NCBI RefSeq assembly: GCF_024502345.1
Contig: NZ_JALDNN010000001.1
DNA length: 64,000 nt
From: Escherichia coli
Lineage (GTDB): Bacteria; Pseudomonadota; Gammaproteobacteria; Enterobacterales; Enterobacteriaceae
Direction: 5' to 3' (one strand)
The notes below the pieces were generated by a model. That model searched no databases. It was not told where the DNA came from and saw only the letters and a list, made by a program, of their open reading frames with translations. The position numbers and the translations under genes were made by a program. Shown in pieces: positions 21,159 to 23,328 of the stretch; position 1 is the first letter of the stretch, and each line of letters starts with the position of its first letter.

Positions 21159-21669
21159 TTACCAGTCGATGTTGAAAATCAATTTCGTACTGCTCTTCTG
21201 CTGAATATTTTTTAAATCTGTCAGCATAGTTTTTAATAACGTATAGGGGGCGCTGTCAGAATTGCTTTCCCTTTGTTCAATCACTTCCTTGGCTGCCATG
21301 CACACAAACGCACCGCAACTTTGGCTTAAGTATTGCTGAAGATCGGCATGTAAAAATATTATCTCTGGTTCATTTAAATGAACTTTTATATTATTATTCG
21401 ACATTTCTCCCATGAGTTCAGAATTAAAACTATTAATGACACGCTTAAGTGAATTTTCTTTATCATGGCCTAGTGCACGCAATGAGTTGAATATGACGCA
21501 TTTTATTTGTAGTTTATTATTTTTTTTATTTACTATTTTCTGTAGCGAAACTAATATCCAGTGTCCGCCAGTATTTATGGGGAATAACTGGACTTCATTC
21601 GGCCATGATGGATCGCTATTAATATTTTCATTGAGAGCGTCTTCCAGGTGAGTTCTGGTGGAGTAGGGG
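21159..21669 (-). pseudogene. elaD: elaD C-terminal fragment (Ulp1/C48-type deubiquitinase catalytic region) separated from its 5' half by an IS
   Basis: Frame encodes ...[42 protein letters not shown]...[20 protein letters not shown]..., with the catalytic His and Cys of the Ulp1-like protease fold. Upstream codons of the 199-aa ORF in the track are read out of IS sequence. Confidence 0.8.
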
Positions 21670-22726
21670 GGCTTTGTTGAATAAATCGAACTTTTGCTGA
21701 GTTGAAGGATCAGATCACGTATCTTCCCGACAACGCAGACCGTTCCGTGGCAAAGCAAAAGTTCAAAATCACCAACTGGCCCACCTACAATAAAGCCCTC
21801 ATCAACCGTGGCTCCATAACTTTCTGGCTGGATGATGAAGCTATTCAGGCCTGGTATGAGTCAGCAACACCTTCTTCACGAGGCAGACCTCAGCGCTATT
21901 CTGACCTTGCCATCACGACTGTGCTGGTCATTAAACGCGTATTCAGGCTGACCCTGCGCGCTGCGCAGGGCTTTATTGATTCCATTTTTTCTCTGATGAA
22001 CGTTCCGCTACGCTGCCCGGATTACAGCTGTGTCAGCAGGCGGGCAAAGTCGGTTAATGTCAGTTTCAAAACGCCCACCCGGGGTGAAATCGCACACCTG
22101 GTAATTGATTCCACCGGGCTGAAGGTCTTCGGTGAAGGCGAGTGGAAAGTCAAAAAGCATGGCCAGGAACGCCGCCGTATCTGGCGTAAGCTGCATCTCG
22201 CCGTTGACAGTAAAACACATGAAATCATCTGCGCTGACCTGTCGCTGAACAACGTTACGGACTCAGAGGCCTTCCCCGGGTTAATCCGGCAAACCCACCG
22301 GAAAATCAGGTCAGCCGCCGCCGATGGCGCTTACGATACCCGGCTATGTCACGATGAACTGCGGCGTAAGAAAATCAGCGCGCTTATCCCTCCCCGAAAA
22401 GGTGCGGGTTACTGGCCCGGTGAATATGCAGACCGTAACCGTGCAGTGGCTAATCAGCGAATGACCGGGAGTAATGCGCGGTGGAAATGGACAACAGATT
22501 ACAACCGTCGCTCGATAGCGGAAACGGCGATGTACCGGGTAAAACAGCTGTTCGGGGGTTCACTGACACTGCGTGACTACGATGGTCAGGTTGCAGAGGC
22601 TATGGCCCTGGTACGAGCGCTGAACAAAATGACGAAAGCAGGTATGCCTGAAAGCGTGCGTATTGCCTGAAAACACAACCCGCTACGGGGGAGACTTACC
22701 CGAAATCTGATTTATTCAACAAAGCC
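21670..22726 (+). mobile_element. IS903-type insertion sequence (IS5 family, IS903 group), complete, 1057 bp
   Basis: Left end GGCTTTGTTGAATAAATC at 21670; its exact reverse complement ends at 22726 (18-bp perfect terminal inverted repeats). Flanked by a perfect 9-bp direct repeat GAGTAGGGG at 21661-21669 and 22727-22735. Length and 9-bp duplication are characteristic of IS903. Confidence 0.92.
21702..22670 (+). CDS. IS903-group DDE transposase
   Basis: 322-aa ORF containing [23 protein letters not shown]...[12 protein letters not shown] and ...[13 protein letters not shown]..., typical of IS903/IS102 transposases. The true start may be internal (IS903 Tnp is about 307 aa). Confidence 0.9.
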
Positions 22727-23328
22727 GAGTAGGGGACGTAGAGACCAGTAGGATAATTGACTTGAGTATTTTTTGCATTAGCGGCGATCTTCTGAAGATA
22801 GCAAGCTATTTCATCTGTGGTTAATTGACGATTTTTATCCCAGAAGTTTGTACCATCACTCAGTTCATTATTCTCATCATTTAAAAGCACCTTTGAAAGC
22901 GACTGTTTTTCAGATATAAGAGGAATTTCATCACCGATAATTGTCATTAATTTCGAAGGGGAGAATAGCTTTTTGAACAGGAGAACATCTGAATTATCCG
23001 GACCAGTTGGTTTAAGGTGGGAGTTGGTTGCGGTATGTGCCAAATTATATAATTTTAAACAGGCATTTTTAATAAGTCGGATAATCGATAGGGTCTCATT
23101 TGTTGGGTTTCTAACAATATGGTAAAGAATATCTTCAGCTTTTTTTCCAAATTCATCATAACCTAACGCAATATTATGCAGTAACTCAATACTTTCTTCA
23201 TCTCCGGATAACGCTGTTTTTTTTAAAGACTGCAGTAATTCCTCGGTCACAGTAAATTTTTCTGCAAATGTCTGACTGAGTTGGGTTTGAGATAATTGAC
23301 AATAATTGCTGACAACTGTAACCATCAT
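22727..23328 (-). pseudogene. elaD: elaD N-terminal fragment, 5' half of the IS-disrupted gene
   Basis: [35 protein letters not shown]...[11 protein letters not shown], then the frame runs into the IS right end. The PYS codons coincide with the target-site duplication, so joining this to the 21159-21669 fragment restores a continuous ElaD frame. Confidence 0.8.

Follow-up and report, generated by a model that had tools for sequence, protein, structure and literature searches.

A complete IS903B element interrupts elaD in an Escherichia coli strain closely related to O125ac:H10 C 236-04A

Introduction

In a stretch of 64,000 nucleotides of Escherichia coli DNA (RefSeq assembly GCF_024502345.1, contig NZ_JALDNN010000001.1; the whole stretch is referred to here as the window), elaD, the gene for the ubiquitin-specific protease ElaD, is present as two fragments separated by an insertion sequence (IS) of the IS903 type. 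The locus raises the question of whether the element came to lie there by simple insertion, and whether its arrival is what deprived the strain of the protease. An earlier note on this DNA, made from the letters and their translations, had answered yes to both. The analysis described here indicates that a single complete IS903B almost certainly entered the chromosomal elaD of a strain very close to E. coli O125ac:H10 C 236-04A as a simple insertion, abolishing the deubiquitinase. A second lesion is present further along the same gene, and the order of the two lesions and the reality of the second are considered below. The element itself and the decay of elaD are both already known.

Results

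A complete IS903B in the window

By script, the element measures exactly 1057 bp, and the 18 bases at its start (GGCTTTGTTGAATAAATC) match the reverse complement of the 18 at its end (18/18), with pairing ending at position 19. This length and the perfect 18-bp inverted repeats had both been given in the earlier note, and the script verified both. Inverted repeats of 18 bp are the IS903 family value, and within the window the 18-mer is present solely at the two element ends, which bound the only IS903 copy there. The GC content of the element is about 55%, as against about 34-38% for elaD and more than 50% for its neighbours. Two GATC sites precede the transposase start, and in the IS903 literature such sites have a regulatory role. 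The parts of the element are as follows.

21670-22726, plus strand: complete IS903B, 1057 bp; length and ends by script, 100% identity to annotated IS903B copies
21670-21687, plus strand: left terminal inverted repeat, complementary at 18/18 positions to 22709-22726
22709-22726, minus strand: right terminal inverted repeat, by script on the window
21708-21716, no strand assigned: pair of Dam (GATC) sites, element positions 39 and 44, 5' of the transposase start
21747-22670, plus strand: transposase open reading frame (ORF), 307 amino acids, GTG start, element positions 78-1001, uninterrupted

The transposase ORF had been described in the earlier note as uninterrupted, and it is so in its longer form as well as in the form listed above: annotation in the style of PGAP begins at a TTG at 21702 to give a 322-amino-acid product (ORF 21702-22670), which has the same sequence as WP_000654812.1 in the annotation of strain CUVM53. 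The transposase scores 357 bits against the NCBIfam model NF033579 (IS5 family transposase; cutoff 140) and contains the Pfam domains PF13737 and PF01609 (DDE_Tnp_1_5 and DDE_Tnp_1). The 307-amino-acid form has D121, D193 and E259, which we take to be the IS903 catalytic triad.

A megablast search of PLSDB with the 1057-bp element gave at least 5000 matches, and among the matches listed are many plasmids of Escherichia, Salmonella, Citrobacter and Klebsiella with copies identical at 1057/1057 bp; the plasmid copies listed at 100% are all labelled 'IS5-like element IS903B family transposase'. The comparison set for E. coli consisted of 5,426 complete RefSeq genomes. The element has matches in 1,993 of these, at 4,712 chromosomal and 2,459 plasmid places, and many full-length copies at 100% are found among them also. 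The name IS903B rests on the RefSeq annotation of identical copies rather than on the sequence of X02527 itself, and by the ISfinder convention a name is shared at 95% nucleotide identity or more. An ISfinder-derived table gives IS903B as 1057 bp, accession X02527, with an ORF at 78-1001 coding for 307 amino acids (PMC8796155), and the length of 1057 bp is also given in PMC10513040. Compared with the tabulated IS903B, the element in the window has the same length, the same ORF coordinates, the same 18-bp inverted repeats and the same 9-bp duplication (see below), and no difference was detected. Judged on its sequence, the element is IS903B, of the IS903 group of the IS5 family, and agrees with that assignment at every point at which membership can be tested. 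The assignment to the IS903 type in the earlier note is thus borne out, both by the 1057/1057-bp identity to IS903B copies and by the NF033579 match.

A simple insertion, with the empty site in a near-isogenic genome

The element is flanked by two identical copies of GAGTAGGGG, a sequence that is found at no third place in the window when both strands are scanned.

21661-21669, no strand assigned: left copy of the 9-bp target-site duplication, by script; single copy in C 236-04A, YA-1 and K-12
22727-22735, no strand assigned: right copy of the 9-bp target-site duplication, by script on the window

The direct repeat is exactly 9 bp long, as the adjoining bases agree on neither side: those preceding the two copies are G (21660) and C (22726), and those following are G (21670) and A (22736). 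By arithmetic, an element bounded by inverted repeats would have the same 9 bp next to each of its ends by chance with a probability of about 4^-9, and 9 bp is the published duplication length for IS903 (PMC2577343, Table 1) and for IS903B (PMC10513040). When 21670-22735 is deleted, the minus-strand junction becomes colinear with the intact elaD of YA-1 and K-12, with no gap or mismatch there.

The most informative comparison is with E. coli O125ac:K+:H10 C 236-04A (NZ_CP109924.1), which is the closest complete genome, at 100.0% identity over 24 kb; all others are at 98.9% or below. Across the whole window its identity is 99.96-100%, with 17 substitutions, 2 small insertions or deletions (indels) in about 63 kb, and three IS differences, one of which is the IS903B copy, present in the window only. 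At the corresponding site C 236-04A has one GAGTAGGGG and no IS, as K-12 and YA-1 likewise have a single copy, and the rejoined window sequence is identical to that of C 236-04A at 966/966 bases across the junction. This empty site is direct proof of simple insertion. With a single GAGTAGGGG and no IS in a near-isogenic genome, the IS903B insertion is therefore both simple and recent. The repeats at 21661-21669 and 22727-22735 are accordingly a genuine target-site duplication, as the earlier note had supposed, the native gene having one copy; the comparison with uninterrupted elaD in other E. coli, which it had put forward as a check, confirms that the repeat is not a native duplicate and that the rejoined sequence aligns with YA-1 and K-12. 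Its view that the insertion is recent also holds, as the empty site in the near-clonal C 236-04A places the event after the split between the two.

Misassembly at IS copies is a classic problem, and IS903 is able to form cointegrates. The element could be an assembly artefact, or it could belong to a larger composite transposon or cointegrate as one of its arms and not be a simple insertion. We regard this as extremely improbable, as the sequence that is single-copy at the empty site is duplicated over exactly 9 bp at both ends, the flanks are perfectly colinear, and the 64 kb hold no second IS903 copy.

The same junction was found in none of the 5,426 complete E. coli genomes by megablast of 21000-23400, and the junction 33-mer has no exact match in JGI metagenome contigs or in GTDB representative genomes. 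The assembly collection likewise gave no exact match to the chimeric ORF that joins the ElaD N-terminal portion to the IS, with either of two alternative starts. The insertion is recent and private to the immediate lineage of the strain, and the junction can be used as a clone-specific marker.

The interrupted gene

The identification of the host gene as elaD, as proposed in the earlier note, is upheld by family and by position. Against NF008812, the model for the ElaD/SseL family deubiquitinase (cutoff 250), the rejoined product reaches 405.5 bits, and it matches PF22103 (residues 30-141, the ElaD/SseL N-terminal domain), PF02902 and PF22102, with the Ulp1-type catalytic domain running from about residue 161 on. 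From the neighbours and the annotation of matching genomes, the gene order is nuoN, yfbM, a frameshifted yfbL remnant, elaD, rbn, elaA, elaB and menF. IS903B sits after codon 201 of a 406-codon elaD allele and thus breaks the full-length reading frame into two parts.

22727-23328, minus strand: elaD 5' fragment, codons 1-201, with the ElaD/SseL N-terminal domain (PF22103)
21043-21669, minus strand: elaD 3' fragment, codons 199/202-406 of the native frame, with the Ulp1-like catalytic domain including His234 and Cys316

Two minus-strand ORFs in the ORF list extend from the flanking DNA into the element, and that of the 5' fragment enters the right inverted repeat and continues for 9 codons (ALLNKSDFG) as far as a TAA stop at 22696-22698. 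The catalytic cysteine, in the motif SQSCG, is residue 316 in alleles of the 406-amino-acid type and residue 313 in K-12, and a C313S mutant of ElaD is inactive (Catic et al., PMC1847702). As the insertion lies after codon 201 and the catalytic cysteine is C316, the 5' fragment is without any catalytic residue.

A plausible course of events can be drawn from what is known of IS903 and of DDE transposases. The transposase would bind both 18-bp terminal inverted repeats, the 3' ends of the element would be joined to target strands cut with a 9-bp stagger, and repair of the gaps would produce the 9-bp duplication GAGTAGGGG. The consequence for elaD is a split after codon 201, with a 5' fragment that codes only for the N-terminal domain and 9 residues from the IS. 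The Ulp1-like catalytic domain (His234, Cys316) is left without promoter and start codon, and the deubiquitinase is thereby abolished.

We considered whether the catalytic fragment might be re-expressed from the IS, and dropped this idea, as a promoter scan of 21100-23500 gave, at the left end of the IS, no promoter-like site on the minus strand that faces outward and could drive the in-frame chimeric ORF at 21159-21758. Promoter-like and terminator-like sites in 21100-23500 are no commoner than in shuffled sequences, and no Rfam family reaches the gathering threshold in 19000-25000.

The elaD gene and its immediate surroundings (20600-21650 and 22750-23400) are AT-rich, at 34-38% GC, and the flanking core genes are at 50-58% GC; the low GC content of elaD is consistent with horizontally acquired DNA. 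In 19900-20800 yfbK is absent and only a degraded yfbL-like remnant, split into short ORFs, lies between yfbM and elaD. The remnant is annotated as 'hypothetical protein, frameshifted' in relatives, and K-12, GDSC2239PM and SCU-104 retain both yfbK and yfbL.

A probable second lesion in elaD

The earlier note had stated that removal of the element and one repeat copy rejoins the two halves of elaD in frame. This is so at the junction, but the rejoined ORF is 367 rather than 406 amino acids long owing to a -1 frameshift downstream.

21230-21234, minus strand: -1 frameshift at codon 345, a run of five T (T5; coding strand A5) in place of the six of intact elaD, with the shifted stop at 21159-21161

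Because of this frameshift, precise excision of the IS would give the 367-amino-acid product and not the 406-amino-acid ElaD. Alignment with YA-1 and K-12 places the missing base in this run, and each of the six other genomes examined has six T (T6); one of them is C 236-04A, which otherwise matches the window throughout elaD. As C 236-04A has both T6 and the empty site, the two elaD lesions, IS903B and T5, postdate the split. The native segment that the frameshift replaces aligns with residues 309-329 of the SseL structure 5HAF, and this part of the conserved fold, a C-terminal helix, would be removed if the frameshift is real.

With an 80-nucleotide probe around the run, the T5 form was found in 2 of the 4,140 complete genomes carrying the segment. 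The two carriers, E100341 and SCU-104, are unrelated to the window (about 98% identity), and their elaD genes are annotated as 'frameshifted'. The presence of T5 in two unrelated genomes indicates either recurrent slippage or recurrent sequencing error. That T5 is a lineage trait was also considered and rejected, as the near-isogenic genome has T6 and those sharing T5 are only about 98% identical.

The second lesion bears on the claim of the earlier note that the IS knocks out ElaD. An insertion after codon 201 agrees with that claim, but the IS is not the sole lesion, the T5 frameshift having been missed. On one view elaD was dead already, the frameshift at 21230-21234 having come first and IS903B having landed in a pseudogene and knocked out nothing. 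Two lesions lie within one 1.2-kb gene, no other homopolymer indel separates the window from the near-isogenic genome over about 63 kb, and the replaced region, aligning as it does with the conserved C-terminal segment of 5HAF, makes the frameshift plausibly an inactivating one; moreover, elaD pseudogenes starting with a single-base deletion are known (PMC1847702). However, one genome gives no order of events, and C 236-04A has neither lesion. The frameshift is also 3' of the catalytic Cys316 and so might leave partial activity, and it may be a sequencing error. We therefore hold a pre-existing pseudogene to be possible and somewhat doubtful.

Nothing contradicts the identification of the element and its insertion. 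The T5 frameshift, for its part, could be a homopolymer sequencing error. On this reading the T5 run would be an error of sequencing or assembly and the IS the sole real lesion, as in the earlier note. Only one base of a homopolymer is at issue, Catic et al. (PMC1847702) describe a sequencing artefact of the same kind in an A-rich stretch of elaD, and the sporadic T5 in two unrelated complete genomes fits recurrent error as well as slippage. Against this, T5 is the sole homopolymer indel in about 63 kb relative to C 236-04A, so that errors are not a general feature of the assembly; by length, a lone error would fall within the already disrupted gene with a probability of about 2% (1.2 kb of 63 kb; arithmetic). 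We hold an error at the run, too, to be possible and somewhat doubtful.

Other insertions in and near elaD

The two remaining IS differences between the window and C 236-04A are both elements present in C 236-04A only. ISKpn26 lies inside elaD at another site (NZ_CP109924.1 about 1633941-1635135, equivalent to 21469-21473 of the window) and is an independent disruption of elaD within the same clone. ISAeme16, of the IS630 family, lies between rbn and elaA (NZ_CP109924.1 about 1637056-1638217, equivalent to 24453/24454 of the window); the 2-bp overlap of its flanks fits a TA duplication.

Three of the complete genomes span the whole of the 21000-23400 query, each with an IS903-like element at a different position.

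Z1323CEC0002, inside elaD: IS903B, 1057 bp, with 9-bp target-site duplication CTTAAATAT
CUVM53, elaD-rbn intergenic region: IS903B, 1057 bp, with 9-bp target-site duplication CCTGTTTTT
GDSC2239PM, yfbK-elaD intergenic region: IS903 relative, 92% identical

Thus Z1323CEC0002, CUVM53, GDSC2239PM and C 236-04A also have IS5-family insertions in or next to elaD, and as the sites all differ the insertions are independent. The preferred IS903 target motif is WTTYA-N9-TRAAW (PMC2577343), to which the target in the window conforms at 3/10 positions, the typical score in elaD being about 4. The three IS903-like elements observed in the 2.4-kb elaD region among the 5,426 genomes compare with about 2.3 expected, an arithmetic figure from 4,712 chromosomal copies over about 5 Mb in which the copies are not independent. 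We considered elaD as a hotspot for IS903 and rejected this, as the sites differ, the match to the motif is poor, and the number observed is close to that expected.

The independent insertions raise a further possibility, that loss of ElaD was positively selected in the O125ac:H10-related lineage and is adaptive rather than neutral decay. Two different elements, IS903B and ISKpn26, entered elaD at different sites in genomes that are 17 single-nucleotide polymorphisms apart over 63 kb, and with a motif match below the typical score for the gene site preference provides no explanation. On the other hand, elaD is dispensable and often absent or a pseudogene, as neutral decay predicts, IS903 is not enriched at elaD, and the sample is two genomes, with the window picked for having the IS. 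We consider selected loss improbable.

Two further observations concern DNA away from elaD. At window position 56938 there is a 2-bp CA difference from C 236-04A in a gene for a LysR-family regulator, which is annotated as 'frameshifted' in C 236-04A; lacking the extra CA, the gene in the window may be intact. Between the rhamnonate genes and glpC there is a 323-amino-acid ORF (48238-49209, minus strand) that is annotated as 'ISNCY family transposase' in the relative and presumably resembles the YfaD/RpnB-type protein of K-12. Within this ORF, at 48353-48438, a 24-bp tandem repeat present in 3.6 copies encodes LQxGKLEG units.

Discussion

The simple insertion of IS903B into elaD has parallels both for the element and for the gene. 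IS903B is mobile in nature, with within-host and in-vitro transposition into mgrB and plasmids as likely donors (PMC10513040). In those cases, in Klebsiella with colistin resistance and with IS903B in or upstream of mgrB, there is likewise a simple insertion that inactivates a chromosomal gene and is flanked by 9-bp direct repeats, and the donors proposed are plasmid copies identical to the inserted copy (PMC10513040). The target here differs from mgrB in being elaD of E. coli, without a known selectable phenotype and without an insertion hotspot. The copy in the window is probably still active, structurally competent to move and recently acquired, because its ends and ORF are intact and it is identical to widely spread copies.

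E. coli and Shigella can dispense with elaD, which in them is frequently missing or a pseudogene (PMC1847702, PMC12575377). In the known elaD pseudogenes (E. coli HS, 536 and F11, and Shigella) and in premature-stop alleles, the same gene has been lost through small lesions. The known pseudogenes reportedly start with one shared single-nucleotide deletion, whereas the allele in the window has IS903B together with a rare homopolymer -1 deletion.

The insertion leaves a strain without functional ElaD, a ubiquitin-specific protease, and beyond the bookkeeping of this strain its significance is slight. The paired and independent disruptions of elaD in two near-identical genomes do, however, provide a small data point for relaxed or negative selection on the gene in some lineages.
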